Shown: positions 2,651 to 61,028 of the stretch, piece by piece
How positions within the stretch are numbered: the first letter of the stretch is position 1
Layout: each line of letters opens with the position of its first letter
Source: a virus
Taxonomy: Duplodnaviria > Caudoviricetes
Strand: one strand, 5' to 3'
Length of the DNA: 64,000 nt
IMG/VR virus record: IMGVR_UViG_3300013426_000001
Location: 1 to 64,000 of that record
Position numbers and translations under genes: made by a program
Notes under the pieces: generated by a model
Told to the model about the DNA's origin: nothing
The model's database searches: none
The model's input: the letters and a program-made list of their open reading frames with translations, nothing else

Positions 2651-3853
2651 ATGATAGATTTCGAAGATATAGAGTATAAGCGTTTAGATGATGAAACCGA
2701 AGACGATTATATTCTTCGTATATGCGGTTTAAAAGAAGATAAGCAACTTTTCTGGGATGAGGTTGCTCGTATTATAAACAAAGAACTTGACCTCAATTAC
2801 ACAGAAAGTAGATATAGAAAACTGTATTCCGCATATAAAAAAGGAAAGGAAGAAGTTGAAAAAGAAGTTGTCGAGTTTTCTCCCGAAGAAGTAGAAACTC
2901 GTGAAAAATATGCAAACTCTTGCGATAAAATCGCTTATTCGAGATTGATGAGGCAAGATGCGCGTTTCGAGCGTTTTTATAAATTGGTCGGGGAGCAGAT
3001 TTCTCAATTACCTCCGCCGCAATTCTTAAACGAAAATAAAATAAATTCTTATGTCGATAATGATAAAGAACACGTTCTGTGTTTTGCGGATTTGCATATC
3101 GGAGCAAAGTTCACTTCGATAAACAATAGTTATTCAATACAAGAAGCTCAAAACAGATTTGAAAAAGCACTTGCTTATTGTCGTGATTATGTTTCTAAAA
3201 ACAATGTCAAAAAATTAACGGTTTTAAGTCTCGGTGACGAGATACAGGGAATGCTCAGAATCAGCGATATGCGCCTCAATGAAAAATGTGTTGTAGATGC
3301 GTTTGTGTTTGCTGAACGTCTTATCGCAAATTTCTTAAATGAACTTTCTAAGTATTGTTATGTTGATTACAAAATGGTAGTTTATTCCAATCATAATCAG
3401 AATAGATATTTGGGGACAAAAGCCTCCGAACTTGCTGGCGAAGATATGGGTAAAATTCTTTATGGATACCTGACTGATGTTTTAGCACTGAATGACAGAA
3501 TAACCGTTTATGCGAACGAGGAAGCTGATTATACCGAATTTAAAATATTCGATTTTAACTTCATAATGCTTCATGGACATCAGATAAATAATATTCAGAA
3601 TGCAATTAAAGATTTGTCAAATACGCACCATAAATTTTACGATTATGTAATTCTTGGACATACACATTCGTTGAAAGAATATCCTGGAGGCGAGGGCGAG
3701 CATTACAATATGGAAGTACTTGTTGCGCCGAGTGTTTGTGGTAGTGATCCTTATGCCGATAAGTTGCAAGTTGGAAGTAAAGCTGGAATGGTAATATTCG
3801 AATTTGATAAAAAATATGGGTATACCGACAAACATAATATAATTTTGAATTAA
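2651..3853 (+). CDS. Calcineurin-like metallophosphoesterase (SPbeta YonJ-like position)
   Basis: Motifs ADLHIG, LGDEIQG, SNH, HGH, GHTH. Confidence 0.85.
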   Translation: MIDFEDIEYKRLDDETEDDYILRICGLKEDKQLFWDEVARIINKELDLNYTESRYRKLYSAYKKGKEEVEKEVVEFSPEEVETREKYANSCDKIAYSRLMRQDARFERFYKLVGEQISQLPPPQFLNENKINSYVDNDKEHVLCFADLHIGAKFTSINNSYSIQEAQNRFEKALAYCRDYVSKNNVKKLTVLSLGDEIQGMLRISDMRLNEKCVVDAFVFAERLIANFLNELSKYCYVDYKMVVYSNHNQNRYLGTKASELAGEDMGKILYGYLTDVLALNDRITVYANEEADYTEFKIFDFNFIMLHGHQINNIQNAIKDLSNTHHKFYDYVILGHTHSLKEYPGGEGEHYNMEVLVAPSVCGSDPYADKLQVGSKAGMVIFEFDKKYGYTDKHNIILN

Positions 3854-3867
3854 TCGTATTAAAACGT

Positions 3868-3896
3868 TTGACAATTAAATATTTTTATGGTATAAT
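3868..3896 (+). promoter_or_regulatory. Consensus sigmaA promoter of endonuclease cassette 1
   Basis: TTGACA-17 nt-TATAAT with extended -10 TG. Confidence 0.9.
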
Positions 3897-3902
3897 AGAA
3901 AT

Positions 3903-3995
3903 ATAAAAACTGGGACAGGGAGTAATTAACCTTTTTCGCAACTCCTTTTGCGAAATTACCAGTTTTTATTGATATATAGGTGTTTTTATAAGGAG
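3903..3995 (+). promoter_or_regulatory. Structured 5' leader RNA (three-way junction, anti-SD loop), copy 1
   Basis: P1 ataaaaactgg/ccagtttttat encloses GACAG, P2, a P3 hairpin with loop CTCCTT (3942-3947) and ATTA; the loop is complementary to SD AAGGAG (3990-3995). Confidence 0.65.
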
Positions 3996-4003
3996 ATAAA
4001 AAT

Positions 4004-5470
4004 ATGAAAATTTACGATATTAATAAAGAAGAGTTAATTGATTATTATGTAAATAAACAGCATAGCATTAAAGAATGTGCTGAGTATTTTAAAACTAACT
4101 ATACTCATATTTGCACTGTTTTAAAGGGATATGGAATAAAAAAGAATAAGTTGATTGTAAATAAAAAAGTTACGATTTTCCATCATATAGATAAGGATGA
4201 ATTTACTCAATATTATGTTATTGAAAATCATACGAGAGAAGAGTCAGCAAAACATTTTGGCTGTAGCAAATCAACAATAGAAAGATTTATATCTAAAAAT
4301 AACATAAATAAATCAGAAGATAAAATTAGAGAAATACTTAGAACACCTAAAAAATATATTGTTGATAAATTTGAATTATATGAATACTATAAGGTTCAAA
4401 AACATACTCAGGTAGAGTGCGCAAAACACTTTAATGTTCCAAAAAATATTATAAGAGATAATATAAAAAGAAATGGGTGGGAATTTAATGAGTTTGTACC
4501 AAAGTCTCCAAATATAGACGAGTTGTATGATTATTATGTAGTTCAAAATCACAGTAATGATGAAACGGCTGAATATTTTAATATAAGCCCGTCGACTATT
4601 TGGAGAGTAATGCGAGAGAATGATTTGGAAAAATCTAAGAAATTAGTTGCTGAAACTCGCAAAAATACGTGTTTAAATAAATATGGTGTCGAAAGTACCT
4701 CTCAAGTTTCTGAATTTAGAGAAAAAGCAAAAGAAACAATGAAGAGAGAGTATGGTTCCGAAAACCCAATGGATGTTCCTGAATTTAAAGAAAAGATAAA
4801 AAAGACATGTTTGCGGAAATATGGGGTAGATTGTGTTTTTAAAGTAAAAGAAATTCATGACAAATGTATAGAAAATAGTCGCAAATCTTTAATTGAAAAA
4901 TACGGCGTTCCTTACACGTCTTGGATTGGTAGAAGTGATGAATATATTTCCATTGTATCGTCTGAAGATTCTTTTAGAAATTTTATAATTAAAAACGAGT
5001 TAAAAACAAAAAAGGATATTTGCGAAGCATTAGGATTGAGCGCAAGCTGTGCGTTAGATTATATAAATAAATATAGCGCATGGGATTTATTAGACAAAAA
5101 CGTATCTCAGCCAGAAGAAGATTTTTACAAGTATTTGTGTAAAAAATATGGAGAGGAAGATATATTTAGAGAGTATAACGAAGATCCAAGATATCCTTTT
5201 AGGTGTGATTTTTATATAAAATCAATAGACACATTTGTTGAATTAAATTTATATATTACACATGGAGTTAAACCATATGTCGCAGACGATCCAGAATGTG
5301 TTGAGTATTTAAAGCTTTATAAAGAGAGAGCTGAAACGCAGAGTATTTATTATTCTGTAATAGACAATTGGACTGTCCGCGATGTATTAAAAATAAAAAC
5401 AGCAAAAGACAATAATCTTAAATATATAATGTATTATAAAAACGATAATTTATACGATGGCAGGGTTTAA
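4004..5470 (+). CDS. Free-standing homing-type endonuclease: repeated HTH-like modules, KYGV repeats, C-terminal PD-(D/E)XK/Vsr-like domain
   Basis: Four ELxxYYxxxxHxxxExAxxF repeats; KYGVE/KYGVD repeats; SQPEE...RYPFRCDFYI...FVELN...THG; AT-rich, with own promoter and terminator. Confidence 0.75.
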   Translation: MKIYDINKEELIDYYVNKQHSIKECAEYFKTNYTHICTVLKGYGIKKNKLIVNKKVTIFHHIDKDEFTQYYVIENHTREESAKHFGCSKSTIERFISKNNINKSEDKIREILRTPKKYIVDKFELYEYYKVQKHTQVECAKHFNVPKNIIRDNIKRNGWEFNEFVPKSPNIDELYDYYVVQNHSNDETAEYFNISPSTIWRVMRENDLEKSKKLVAETRKNTCLNKYGVESTSQVSEFREKAKETMKREYGSENPMDVPEFKEKIKKTCLRKYGVDCVFKVKEIHDKCIENSRKSLIEKYGVPYTSWIGRSDEYISIVSSEDSFRNFIIKNELKTKKDICEALGLSASCALDYINKYSAWDLLDKNVSQPEEDFYKYLCKKYGEEDIFREYNEDPRYPFRCDFYIKSIDTFVELNLYITHGVKPYVADDPECVEYLKLYKERAETQSIYYSVIDNWTVRDVLKIKTAKDNNLKYIMYYKNDNLYDGRV

Positions 5471-5489
5471 TTAGTCCCCTGCCATTTTT
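5457..5489 (+). terminator. Putative intrinsic terminator of endonuclease cassette 1
   Basis: atggcaggg/ccctgccat stem followed by a T run. Confidence 0.6.
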
Positions 5490-5506
5490 ATATAAGGAGG
5501 TAAAAG

Positions 5507-6394
5507 ATGGCGGAAGAGAAAAAGAAAAATACTAAGAAAGATATAGCAGAACAAGCAAAAGAAGAAGAACTGCTTCAAAGCGTCCTTGCTCAAATACCGA
5601 AAGAAGACGAGGATATTGAGCTTAATGAAGAAGACTTAAAAAACAGACGTGAAATTTTAATGACATTTCACTTTGATCCCTTCGAAAAGGAAAGTAATAA
5701 AGATAAAAAGCAGCTTTATAGAGATCTGGTAAGTATGATTACAGATGATTTAGCAGAAGATTTACCAAAAGCCCGCGCAGCTATTTCCCTAGTTCGTGGT
5801 TATTTGCGTGCAGACAGATTAACAGATGCGGTTCAGTTGCTAAGCAGAGACGCCCAAACAATGGTAGAAAATTCAAAGGCACTCAAGACGCTTTCTGAGA
5901 TGTTAAAAAACGAGAACGCAATTTTGACGACCACAGTACGTGACTTCGGCCTGAGCGATAGGTATGCCACAATGAAATCAAAGGGAGCGGGAACAATTGG
6001 TGCAATTGTAAGAGATATCGAAACGTATGATTACGACGATGGGAAAGTTAATCGTTACGATATAAAAACAAGTGCAAGTATGGAACAGGCAGCCGAGATA
6101 AGCATGAAAGCAATAATGAAGCAATTGAGTTTGAGTGAAGCTGAATACGTTGATATGCTGAAAAGGCAAAGGGAAGAAATTGAAAAGCTGCATAAAGAGA
6201 ATGATGAATTAAAAGAAGAGGTTCGTATAATTTATAAACAGATAAAAAAACAAAGTTTACTCAAAGAACTTGCAACAGAACTTATAAGTAAAGGAATAGG
6301 CAAAGAGGAGGTAGAGTCAATTATAAATTCAAACATTAAATTCGACGATGAAGTTATCGAAAAAGAAAAGAAGAAATTGACGAAAAAGAAATGA
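5507..6394 (+). CDS. Probable terminase small subunit / packaging-associated protein
   Basis: Helical, coiled-coil 295 aa directly upstream of and overlapping TerL; call rests on position. Confidence 0.5.
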   Translation: MAEEKKKNTKKDIAEQAKEEELLQSVLAQIPKEDEDIELNEEDLKNRREILMTFHFDPFEKESNKDKKQLYRDLVSMITDDLAEDLPKARAAISLVRGYLRADRLTDAVQLLSRDAQTMVENSKALKTLSEMLKNENAILTTTVRDFGLSDRYATMKSKGAGTIGAIVRDIETYDYDDGKVNRYDIKTSASMEQAAEISMKAIMKQLSLSEAEYVDMLKRQREEIEKLHKENDELKEEVRIIYKQIKKQSLLKELATELISKGIGKEEVESIINSNIKFDDEVIEKEKKKLTKKK

Positions 6395-15753: not shown

Positions 15754-15782
15754 TTGACAAACGTCAAGTAATTTGTTATAAT
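15754..15782 (+). promoter_or_regulatory. Consensus sigmaA promoter of endonuclease cassette 2
   Basis: TTGACA-17 nt-TATAAT with extended TG. Confidence 0.9.
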
Positions 15783-15789
15783 AAACGTG

Positions 15790-15876
15790 TAAATAGCGGG
15801 ACAGCGGGTTGCAAACCGTTTTCCTTTGTCTCCTATCATTGGGATTACCGCTTTTTATATATTTTTTTATAGGAGA
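15790..15876 (+). promoter_or_regulatory. Structured 5' leader RNA (three-way junction, anti-SD loop), copy 2
   Basis: P1 taaatagcgg/ccgcttttta encloses GACAG, P2 agcgg/ccgtt, a P3 with loop TCTCCTAT (15829-15836) and ATTA; the loop is the exact complement of ATAGGAGA (15869-15876). Confidence 0.65.
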
Positions 15877-15882
15877 ACGAAA

Positions 15883-17817
15883 ATGAAAAATTTTTCAAAA
15901 GAAGAGTTGTTTGAATTATATATAACTCAAAACAAATCAAAAAGAGAATTGGCTGAAATATTGCATACTAACGAGAAGACTTTGGGTGATTATTTTAAAA
16001 AATATGGAATAAAAAAGTCAAAAGAAGATGTCGTTAGAGCAAGAGAATCGACATGCTTAAAAAAATTTGGTTCAACAAACCCAATGAAAAATATTGAAAT
16101 CGCACAAGAGCTTCGTTCCAAGCAAATAGACAATGGTAGAATTAAAAACATACCATACGAAGAACTTTTCGATATTCTTGTTAATAAAAAAATGCTTGTG
16201 ACCAATGCGGCTAAATTTTTCAACACTTCAATAAGTACAATAAAGAGACTTGCGGCAGAAAACGCGATTGAGATTTGCAAAGAAGAATTAAAAACCGTTG
16301 ATAAAGACGAGTTGGAAAATTATTATATTACAGAAAAACATACTCGTGAGGAATGCGCGAAACATTTTGGAATGTCTTATTCTCATATTAAGACGTTTTT
16401 AAAGAAATATAAAATCGAAAAAAGTAAAGATGAAATTTTTGAAAATATTAAACGTGGACATAAGCGTAAAACTGGATATGAATATGCTTTACAAAACCCA
16501 GAATCGATAGCAAAACAAAAAAATACGTATAAGAATAGAACAGAAGAGGAAAAGGCAGAAACGATAAAAAAACGTAAAAACACCTGTATGGATAGATTTG
16601 GTGCGGTCAATCCTTTATGTTCAGAAGATATAAAAGAGAAAGCATTTGCTACTAATATAGAGAGATATGGATATAAAACATCGATTCAAAATCCAGAAAT
16701 TCGTAAAAAAGCGGAAGACACTTTATTTGATCGGTTTGGGGTTAGAAACCCATCTTTAGTTCCCGAGTTTAAACAAAAAAGAGAGAACACCATGCTAGAA
16801 AGATTTGGTGTTGGTAATTACGGAGAAATTGTCTTATCGGAAGATGTTAGAAATTTACTTAATGATAAAGATAAATTCAAAAAATACGTTTTAGATAATA
16901 AGTTATCGACAACGTATGATATTGCGGAGAGTATAGGGTGTTCAATTACAACTATTACAAACAGAATCCACGAATATAACTTAGAAGATTTGGTAAATAG
17001 ATCCCAATCGCATTTTGAAACAGAAATCAATCGTATTTTGACAGATTGGAATGTTAGACATTATAAAACAAGACAAGTTTTGGATAGTAAACAAGAAATA
17101 GATTTTTATTGCCCGAATGAAGCAGTTGGCTTTGAATTTAATGGTAACTGGCCTCATTGTTCGATTAATAAAGATAAAAAATATCACATGGATAAATCGT
17201 TGGAAGCGCAAGAAAAGAATGTGAGATTTATTCACATATATGAATACGAATGGTGCAATCCTCAAAAACAGCCAATAATATTATCTTTAATGCGCGGAGC
17301 ACTTGGGCTCTTTGATAAAAAAATATATGCAAGAAATTGTAAAATAAAAGAGGTTGGAACCAAAGAGTATTTTGATTTTTGCAACCAAAATCACACACAG
17401 GGTTACAGGCAAGCAAAGATTATTTATGGGCTCTATTTTAATAATGAATTAGTTCAAATAATGAGTTTTTCGCATAATAATAAGTATGAATGGGAAATAA
17501 TTCGTGAATGTTCTAAAATTAATACTCAAATAATTGGCGGTAATTCAAAGCTGTTTAAGCATTTTATAAAAATGCAAAATCCAAATAGCGTTTTTAGTTA
17601 TTGCGATTTTAATAAATTTAACGGTAAAGGTTATGAACTACTGGGTATGAAATTTATAGGATATACTGGTCCAGATATGAAGTGGTATTTAAAGGGCAAT
17701 ATAGTTGTAAACAGAAGTCCGAGTAAAAATAAAGAACTCAAAGAAAAGGCCATTGCTCAAATTTGGGGTGCTGGTTCTAAAAAATATTTGTGGACAAAAC
17801 TACAAGAAAATAATTAA
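15883..17817 (+). CDS. Free-standing Hef-like homing endonuclease with HTH-like and RFGV repeats
   Basis: SD AGGAG before ATG 15883; SHFE...EIDFY...GFEFNGNWPH...IHIYEYEW nuclease motifs, then KIYARNC...NHTQG...IIGGNSKLF...FSYCD Hef-type C-domain; AT-rich insert after the capsid gene. Confidence 0.8.
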   Translation: MKNFSKEELFELYITQNKSKRELAEILHTNEKTLGDYFKKYGIKKSKEDVVRARESTCLKKFGSTNPMKNIEIAQELRSKQIDNGRIKNIPYEELFDILVNKKMLVTNAAKFFNTSISTIKRLAAENAIEICKEELKTVDKDELENYYITEKHTREECAKHFGMSYSHIKTFLKKYKIEKSKDEIFENIKRGHKRKTGYEYALQNPESIAKQKNTYKNRTEEEKAETIKKRKNTCMDRFGAVNPLCSEDIKEKAFATNIERYGYKTSIQNPEIRKKAEDTLFDRFGVRNPSLVPEFKQKRENTMLERFGVGNYGEIVLSEDVRNLLNDKDKFKKYVLDNKLSTTYDIAESIGCSITTITNRIHEYNLEDLVNRSQSHFETEINRILTDWNVRHYKTRQVLDSKQEIDFYCPNEAVGFEFNGNWPHCSINKDKKYHMDKSLEAQEKNVRFIHIYEYEWCNPQKQPIILSLMRGALGLFDKKIYARNCKIKEVGTKEYFDFCNQNHTQGYRQAKIIYGLYFNNELVQIMSFSHNNKYEWEIIRECSKINTQIIGGNSKLFKHFIKMQNPNSVFSYCDFNKFNGKGYELLGMKFIGYTGPDMKWYLKGNIVVNRSPSKNKELKEKAIAQIWGAGSKKYLWTKLQENN

Positions 17818-60650: not shown

Positions 60651-60679
60651 TTGACAAATGGTTTTCGACGTGTTATAAT
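60651..60679 (+). promoter_or_regulatory. Consensus sigmaA early promoter
   Basis: TTGACA-17 nt-TATAAT with extended TG. Confidence 0.9.
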
Positions 60680-60710: not shown

Positions 60711-61028
60711 ATGGCTAAAGAAAGGCTTAACACAATGGCAGTCAAAGTGGAAGAAATTCTCAAAAATAAAGCGAAAGCTCGTGACGACGATAACGTGTTA
60801 TACGCGTACTTTCTGAATTCGCTTGGTGTTTCGGTTCGTAAAACGTCGTTTTGGGAAATTACGCGCCGCGTAGTAAATGGCGATTTGCCGTCAATAGAAA
60901 GTGTTGGACGCGTTCGTCGCAAGGTGCAAGAGCTCAATCCCGAACTCATAGGCACGGCAGAAAAGAGAAAAATAAGGTATAAAGCGATTGACGATTACAA
61001 GGAATTCGCTCGCCAAAAGGAGATATAA
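60711..61028 (+). CDS. Hypothetical phage protein
   Basis: SD GGAGG; ARDDD..L...LPSIESV.R.RRKVQE..PEL pattern. Confidence 0.7.
   Translation: MAKERLNTMAVKVEEILKNKAKARDDDNVLYAYFLNSLGVSVRKTSFWEITRRVVNGDLPSIESVGRVRRKVQELNPELIGTAEKRKIRYKAIDDYKEFARQKEI

Follow-up and report, generated by a model that had tools for sequence, protein, structure and literature searches.

In large phages the chief selfish genes are those of homing endonucleases, and their tolerable expression has been explained for only a few genes of the T4 type, every one of which has a separate hairpin. Structures that sequester the ribosome-binding site (RBS) repress I-TevI and the mobE gene of Aeh1, are predicted for I-TevII and I-TevIII, and are implicated for segB of T4 (PMC3014915). 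These T-even hairpins occur on both intron-encoded and free-standing genes; they are simple, local, and gene-specific, and they share no sequence family. The window considered here, meaning the whole 64,000-nt stretch of DNA that was analyzed, comprises the opening 64 kb of an IMG/VR phage record (IMGVR_UViG_3300013426_000001) that is complete at 138.5 kb and has terminal repeats, and it contains two structured leader RNAs, copy 1 and copy 2, each standing before a homing-endonuclease-like gene in what are termed cassettes 1 and 2. As in the T-even systems, a cis-acting RNA structure would occlude the Shine-Dalgarno (SD) sequence of a homing-endonuclease gene and limit its translation. Unlike the T-even hairpins, the leaders described here form one family built on a three-way junction whose core is invariant; a hairpin loop captures the SD in a pseudoknot, a second loop is self-complementary, and nuclease genes of four unrelated families stand behind the module. 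I-TevI further differs in having a late promoter inside its hairpin that releases repression, whereas promoter-like sites are absent between the first leader stem (P1) and the start codon in both window copies, the strong ones lying only upstream of the whole fold. The likely explanation is a family of cis-acting leaders associated with free-standing phage homing-endonuclease genes, in which a portable SD-masking pseudoknot lowers translation of the nuclease and the loops of a second stem (P2) probably kiss.

Three other systems invite comparison. The preQ1-II and SAM-II/V riboswitches are small RNAs of the 5′ untranslated region (UTR) that act on translation and have a pseudoknot in which a conserved element pairs with the SD downstream of it or with the SD flank. 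The present leaders are likewise small 5′ UTR RNAs whose SD or SD flank joins a conserved upstream element in a pseudoknot helix, but they have no Rfam match, are built around a three-way junction, and precede non-metabolic genes. The dimerization initiation site (DIS) of HIV-1, a kissing-loop dimerization hairpin that serves as a retroviral genome-packaging signal, resembles P2 in its 7-9-nt apical loop, its 6-nt self-complementary word, and its unpaired flanking purines, with a word that varies by lineage and stays palindromic; P2 differs in being one arm of a bacterial-virus mRNA leader, for which dimerization would be a prediction. The freshwater-2 RNA (RF02980), the best cis-regulatory near-match in the cmscan output, shares the arrangement of a hairpin followed by an SD, but its score of 15.6 bits against a gathering threshold of 49.9 (E = 4.6) is no better than chance, and the alignment is confined to P3 and the SD.

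In cassette 1, the order after the stop codon of the upstream exonuclease gene is promoter, P1, GAC, P2, U, P3, AUUA, an A/U-rich linker, SD, and an ATG at 4004; the features of both cassettes lie on the plus strand. A sigma-A-type promoter at 3868-3896, identified by consensus match only, agrees at 12 of 12 positions (TTGACA at 3868-3873, a 17-nt spacer, and an extended -10 element, TG-TATAAT, at 3891-3896), and the transcript is predicted to start at about 3903, the first base of P1. The 5′ strand of P1 (3903-3913) forms 11 bp with its 3′ strand (3959-3969) in the minimum free energy (MFE) fold, and the stem is also supported by family covariation. Between the two strands lie the invariant junction bases GAC (J1/2, 3914-3916), the P2 hairpin (3917-3933), in which AGGG pairs with CCUU (3917-3920 with 3930-3933) beneath an apical loop containing the palindrome UAAUUA (3923-3928), a single U that is invariant in family alignments (J2/3, 3934), the P3 hairpin (3935-3954), in which 3935-3941 pairs with 3948-3954 and the anti-SD word CUCCUU occupies the loop (3942-3947), and the invariant junction bases AUUA (J3/1, 3955-3958). 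The SD, AAGGAG at 3991-3996, is the partner of loop 3942-3947 and would form the 3′ strand of the pseudoknot. Folding of copy 1 gives an MFE of -25.5 kcal/mol with z = -3.16, which none of 200 shuffles equaled. The gene that follows (4004-5470) encodes 488 amino acids with several helix-turn-helix (HTH) domains and a DUF7487 match (Pfam, 6.8e-16) and is homing-endonuclease-like.

The identical order of elements recurs at 15754-15885 with different stem sequences. Here a consensus match again places a 12/12 sigma-A-type promoter with extended -10 at 15754-15782. P1 is predicted by folding to pair 15788-15799 with 15848-15859, with one U·U mismatch, and the family alignment places GAC at 15800-15802 and AUUA at 15844-15847. 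In P2 (15803-15820), AGCGG pairs with CCGUU below the loop G-UUGCAA-A, whose palindrome spans 15809-15814; P3 (15822-15843) has a short stem of UCC with GGG and carries the anti-SD word UCUCCUAU in its loop (15829-15836). The complementary AUAGGAGA, comprising the SD and its 5′ flank, lies at 15869-15876 as the putative 3′ strand of the pseudoknot. The cassette 2 gene (15883-17817) encodes 644 amino acids with HTH domains and DUF7487 (Pfam, 5.7e-27) and matches phrog_3339, 'homing endonuclease', at 1.7e-85. The composite pattern, a promoter and then GACAG, has two occurrences in the window where 0.00 are expected, and a covariance-model search found these two leader copies alone in the whole phage. 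A sequence-only reading of this DNA had described two leaders of the form promoter-P1-GACAG-P2-U run-P3-AUUA-P1′, and every element lies where that reading had placed it.

Relatives of both leaders are numerous in viral metagenomes. Candidate members were gathered by scanning IMG/VR for patterns and keeping loci with complementary P1 strands, and then searched with a covariance model (R1) built from 21 sequences, both window copies included; the R1 search covered loci fetched by sequence pattern, among which P2 and P3 subtypes outside those patterns are under-sampled. There were 78 matches, 59 of them distinct, in the fetched IMG/VR loci, and none among 100 pattern-only loci. R1 confirmed 15 further members on contigs of metagenome-assembled genomes (MAGs), from 33 pattern matches in genome contigs. 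The MAG bins that carry the leader are from gut and other sources and include Clostridia, Lachnospiraceae, Romboutsia, and one Bacteroidaceae bin, and isolate chromosomes account for none of the 15 R1-confirmed genome-contig members. The two window copies, which are both in the training set of the model, score 52.1 bits (copy 1) and 70.9 bits (copy 2).

In the R1 alignment, which was fitted to the model and leans toward structure, a bias countered by controls with slid partners and by independent pattern-based checks, standard pairs fill 93.9% of alignment cells versus 66.3% in shuffles, and the covariation score of 0.73 falls to 0.196 on shuffling and does not exceed 0.148 when the partners are slid. 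Both sides change in 13 of 16 pairs and all three stems covary, which bears out the earlier claim that the stems differ in sequence while pairing is kept: 6 of 7 modeled P1 pairs change on both sides, 4 of 4 modeled P3 pairs covary, and so do the P2 pairs above an invariant base. The two proteins encoded in the window are only 26% identical, yet the leader architecture is kept. Judged from these alignments and scores, both window leaders are true copies of a widespread three-armed RNA family.

The earlier statement that the motif belongs to no named family also stands. A cmscan of the whole window against Rfam 15 at gathering thresholds gave 0 matches, and permissive filters applied to 3800-4100 gave best E values of 1.9-4.9, far below gathering. 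A blastn search of 50,697 INPHARED records with four leader subtypes returned no leader, its matches lying in the coding start or being due to chance, and R1 found no match in the whole records of SPBc2, phi3T, Geobacillus E3, phiCD211, MT835469, BESEP2, and 6ec. Two leads in Staphylococcus Sextaecvirus were inspected and are not members. No published account of the motif was found in full-text literature searches, the catalogue of over 10,000 phage RNA candidates published in 2023 (PMC10690425) being outside this comparison. The leaders are a new, widespread, and well-defined RNA family absent from Rfam, although the principle, masking of the RBS, is ordinary. With strong covariation in three stems and the pseudoknot, they are a candidate new Rfam family.

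The pairing of the P3 loop with the SD region carries most of the functional argument. When 49 distinct P3 loops were compared with the 25 nt before the start codon, the longest Watson-Crick run averaged 7.06 with a member's own SD region and 4.34 with those of other members, and the mean duplex energy was -10.99 versus -6.19 kcal/mol; 0 of 10,000 permutations reached the observed run or energy. The compensatory loop-SD change that the sequence-only reading had noticed between the two window copies is thereby extended to the family. This pairing goes beyond a merely anti-SD-like composition of the loops because the paired words are very diverse, among them CUACUC/GAGUAG, CCCUAUC/GAUAGGG, and AUCAACUCC/GGAGUUGAU. 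Relatives whose protein is 93% identical to that of cassette 2 have leader alleles with either UCUCCUAU/AUAGGAGA or the loop CUCCUUAC with the SD GUAAGGAG.

The run is 6-8 bp long in 60 of 65 distinct loops and in 42 of the 65 ends 8-11 nt before the start codon, mostly on the GG of GGAG, and covariation supports placing the first GG of the SD and its 5′ flank inside an RNA helix with the P3 loop. The partner of the SD is a hairpin loop in a three-way junction about 45 nt upstream, and the structure is thus a pseudoknot rather than a simple local hairpin. In the window, the loop:SD duplexes are comparable to or stronger than pairing with the generic 16S tail: -7.8 versus -8.2 kcal/mol for copy 1 and -13.1 versus -7.3 kcal/mol for copy 2. 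In 79 of 88 cases the leader precedes, in the same orientation, a gene with a complementary SD. A second covarying partner of the P3 loop was not found in the linker (2.97 for own versus 2.92 for swapped partners), the coding start (3.72 versus 3.82), or the 5′ flank (3.06 versus 3.04). These comparisons support the formation of a pseudoknot over the RBS by the P3 loop and the SD region.

The apical loop of P2 is self-complementary in most distinct hairpins, a feature that the sequence-only reading did not mention. A palindrome of at least 6 nt occupies the tip of 21 of 27 distinct P2 hairpins, compared with a null mean of 1.9 and a maximum of 8 in 2000 shuffles. Seven 6-nt words were found (UUGCAA, UUCGAA, UCAUGA, UGAUCA, UAGCUA, AGUACU, and UAAUUA), other hairpins hold GGCC or GAUC, and unpaired purines (G...A) usually flank the palindrome. 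In a scan with GGTTSSAAAC, true members had only CG or GC at the variable positions, both palindromic, GG and CC being confined to chance matches. Homodimers of the isolated P2 hairpins were favored by -4.6 and -9.5 kcal/mol in ViennaRNA cofold calculations, which cannot model kissing within the full fold, and no heterodimer of copy 1 and copy 2 was predicted by cofolding of the isolated hairpins. No fixed intramolecular partner of the palindrome was found within 900 nt, where occurrences of a member's own word are scattered and number 28 against 23 for a control word. The palindrome points to kissing-loop self-association of leaders as its probable function. A reading of P2 as a T-loop or tRNA-like element (GUUCGAAAC) was rejected, as it fits one subtype and the other P2 types share palindromy but not the T-loop consensus.

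The junction at the center of the fold hardly varies. Its invariant parts are G-G, GAC, A-G, U, AUUA, and C-C, with GGACAG, U, and AUUAC constant. A scan fixing only part of P2 and AUUAC found 46 members with GGGACAG and 15 with AGGACAG; GGACAG was present in every true member although the scan did not demand it, and the remaining matches were due to chance, including real tRNA T-arms without GGACAG. All 15 AGGACAG members have AUUACU instead of AUUACC, which replaces a G-C pair of P1 by A-U. Conversely, essentially all matches of a scan that did not require AUUAC contain it. The A-U and G·U pairs at the base of P2 are invariant in 59 of 59 sequences, and they are formed by the AG of GACAG and two residues of the "U run", which leaves GAC, U, and AUUA to form the junction strands. 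The sequence-only reading had placed GACAG and the U run between the stems, and of these only GAC and one U remain there, AG and two U having passed to the base of P2.

From the loop-SD pairing alone we infer translational repression, which would proceed as follows. A rigid three-way junction closed by P1 would present the P3 loop to the SD region, where it would form 6-8 bp with the leading two G residues of GGAG and with the 4-5 nt on their 5′ side, approximately 8-11 nt before the start codon. The pseudoknot would then compete with binding of the 16S rRNA tail and the 30S subunit, and fewer initiation events would occur on the mRNA of a potentially toxic nuclease. The module moves with its gene and would be served by its own promoter or by read-through transcripts. 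Kissing of the palindromic P2 loops of two leaders could let repression follow transcript abundance, both dimerization and any link between it and repression being predictions of this scheme. One portable RNA module before at least four unrelated nuclease families in many uncultured phages implies a shared and transferable solution to the expression of such genes, and the palindromic P2 loop makes RNA dimerization as a regulatory input addressable in an RNA of about 100 nt.

Several observations weigh against repression by SD masking as a complete and general account. Approximately 14 junction nucleotides are invariant while the stems vary, which is more than a plain attenuator obviously needs. 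The copy 2 fold taken alone is weak (z = -1.61; 11 of 200 shuffles fold equally well), and its P3 stem is only 3 bp long. Two P2 loop types, GACG and GUGGCU, are non-palindromic, and the cofold energies bear on kissing only as far as isolated hairpins can. Some leaders precede non-nuclease genes, either HTH_36/rep-like or DUF5055, and an HNH_3 gene at approximately 69 kb of the phage record is translationally coupled to its upstream neighbor and lacks the leader motif.

The invariant junction and the palindromic loop together suggest more than passive masking, with RNA dimerization or a bound ligand or factor as the candidates. It is a tentative possibility that the leader is a concentration- or ligand-sensing riboregulator, in which mRNA kissing through P2, or binding of a universal metabolite or host factor by the junction, sets SD capture. 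If so, it would provide self-contained, host-independent dosage control carried between phages by selfish nuclease genes, and it would be either the first natural bacterial-virus mRNA leader regulated by homodimerization or a new riboswitch class for mobile nucleases. That the leader is a true switch is doubtful. The sequence-only reading had proposed a pseudoknot translational switch, of which the pseudoknot over the RBS is upheld and the switch is not, no alternative partner of the loop having been found.

In a more specific form, SD capture would be decided by what the junction binds, be it a small molecule, an ion, or a universal host factor (a ribosomal protein or an RNase, for instance); this is unlikely. 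Invariant junction nucleotides amid varying stems are the pattern of a binding pocket or of a strict tertiary core, and SD capture in a pseudoknot is used by several riboswitch classes, including preQ1-II and SAM-II. The junction is accordingly a candidate riboswitch or protein-binding RNA, and its invariance hints at a bound partner, which would have to be universal because many unrelated phages carry the leader. Against it, no alternative expression platform was seen, the linker, coding start, and 5′ flank containing no second covarying loop partner; the downstream genes are selfish nucleases without a common metabolic theme; and a limit as lenient as E = 10 brought no match to a riboswitch model of Rfam.

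A main role in mRNA stability or processing is improbable. The leader would in that case act as a 5′-terminal structure guarding the transcript against 5′ exonucleases, or its kissing or extended P2 duplex would be a target of a double-strand RNase, with SD pairing secondary. Two P2 hairpins could indeed make an extended duplex, and the predicted start in the window is the first base of P1, which is the layout of known 5′ stabilizers in Bacillota. The 5′-terminal position is nevertheless not conserved: a sigma-70-like promoter stands just before P1 in only 21 of 87 members, and 15 of 87, such as that of G005, start no more than 25 nt after a stop codon and lack a promoter. The coincidence of the transcription start with P1, which the sequence-only reading had pointed out, is accordingly predicted in both window copies but is not a feature of the family, and on this distribution the promoter is not part of the conserved mobile element. 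The strongest covariation, moreover, is that of the loop with the SD region, which a stabilizer would not need. A terminator or attenuator (a G+C-rich hairpin followed by at least 5 U) was considered and set aside, the copy 1 leader containing no terminator-like site; in copy 2 a terminator scan weakly flags P2 and UUUU, where the family keeps about 3 U, and the U run after P1′ is inconstant.

The genes behind the leaders are diverse. Among 67 distinct downstream proteins there are 17 with DUF7487, 14 GIY-YIG, 6 I-HmuI-like NUMOD, 3 HNH_3, 3 LAGLIDADG_3, and 4 HTH_36 proteins, and the PHROG names given to them are for the most part homing or HNH endonuclease. In one sub-group (L129, L131, L132, L136, L140, L164, and L183), the leaders have about 20 additional nt between the promoter and P1 and precede HTH_36 proteins of approximately 104 amino acids that match PHROG replication-initiation families. 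By these annotations the leader is not strictly nuclease-specific. It nonetheless offers a useful annotation marker for mobile nuclease cassettes and for true start codons. The two multi-HTH DUF7487 proteins of the window match PHROG families named homing or HNH endonuclease; a catalytic domain was not found in them by Pfam searches of the C-terminal parts or by a PDB sequence search, and the ESM Atlas yielded no more than weak leads to DUF559, which were below 0.9. The label "endonuclease" for these two genes comes from family names.

This diversity bears on autoregulation by the encoded nuclease, which would bind its own leader. The window proteins carry many HTH domains, and I-TevI is a known autorepressor, but at the DNA level (PMC3014915). 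The idea, raised in the sequence-only reading, is very improbable, since the same invariant junction, with the same P2 and P3 subtypes, occurs before at least four unrelated families of enzymes, DUF7487, GIY-YIG, HNH, and LAGLIDADG, which have no common RNA-binding domain.

The leader travels with its gene. In the window and in G002, G003, and G005, the leader, nuclease gene, and closing hairpin are inserted directly after the stop codon of the exonuclease gene, whereas in the empty site of G004 the exonuclease gene adjoins the next gene with only a hairpin and U run and an SD between them (L208, G004:C1:28900-29500, compared with window 3853-5507). The cassette is bounded by the exonuclease stop codon on the left and by the hairpin and U run on the right, and the comparison of empty and filled sites therefore makes the leader part of a mobile cassette. 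In cassette 1 the closing hairpin and U run, seen in the sequence at 5459-5489, overlap the stop codon; the terminator scan did not call this hairpin because its loop is 11 nt. The filled site of G005 has an equivalent closing hairpin, and the empty site of G004 has a hairpin of its own. A DNA-level element, whether a set of protein-binding or recombination sites or a product of quasi-palindrome correction, would suit mobile cassettes and P2 tips that are perfect 6-nt DNA palindromes, but it is scarcely credible given that DNA would have mismatches at the invariant G·U pair and at the many G·U and U·G pairs of P1 and P3, that strand and position upstream of a gene with complementary SD are fixed (79/88), that the loop covaries with the SD, that the purines flanking the P2 palindrome stay unpaired (G...A) rather than being "corrected", and that the P3 loops are non-palindromic.

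Exchange has also occurred at a finer scale. At orthologous copy 2 loci of close relatives (window 15803-15820 compared with L003-L007 and L135), P2 is of the UUGCAA, CGGCCA, or UUCGAA type while P1 and the junction are near-identical, and the P2 hairpin has been swapped twice at this locus. In L135, the leader is followed by a different and shorter nuclease gene (373 amino acids) with a REase_MTES_1575-like region. The pattern suggests modular exchange both inside the leader and between leader and gene at the copy 2 locus.

The gene upstream of cassette 1 (2651-3853) encodes a YonJ-like exonuclease of the SbcD/Mre11 type (phrog_284) with 33% identity to that of SPBc2 and 40% identity to that of an uncultured human fecal phage. 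Placed by this exonuclease, the uncultured window phage is a distant SPbeta-like phage of gut Bacillota. The HNH_3-type gene mentioned above lies beyond the window, at approximately 68346-69314 of the phage record (G000:C1; locus L452, 747-1715), and encodes 322 amino acids from a GTG start preceded by the SD GGAGG. The leader is not used by all nuclease genes of this phage.

Perfect TTGACA-17-TATAAT promoters number 3 in the 64 kb, against 0.07 expected. The third, at 60651-60679, serves an ordinary short leader without a structured motif and a 105-amino-acid open reading frame (60711-61028). Because the promoter at 60651-60679 has the same upstream context, aaacgcTTGACAAA, as the cassette 2 promoter, the latter seems to be a strong promoter native to the phage.

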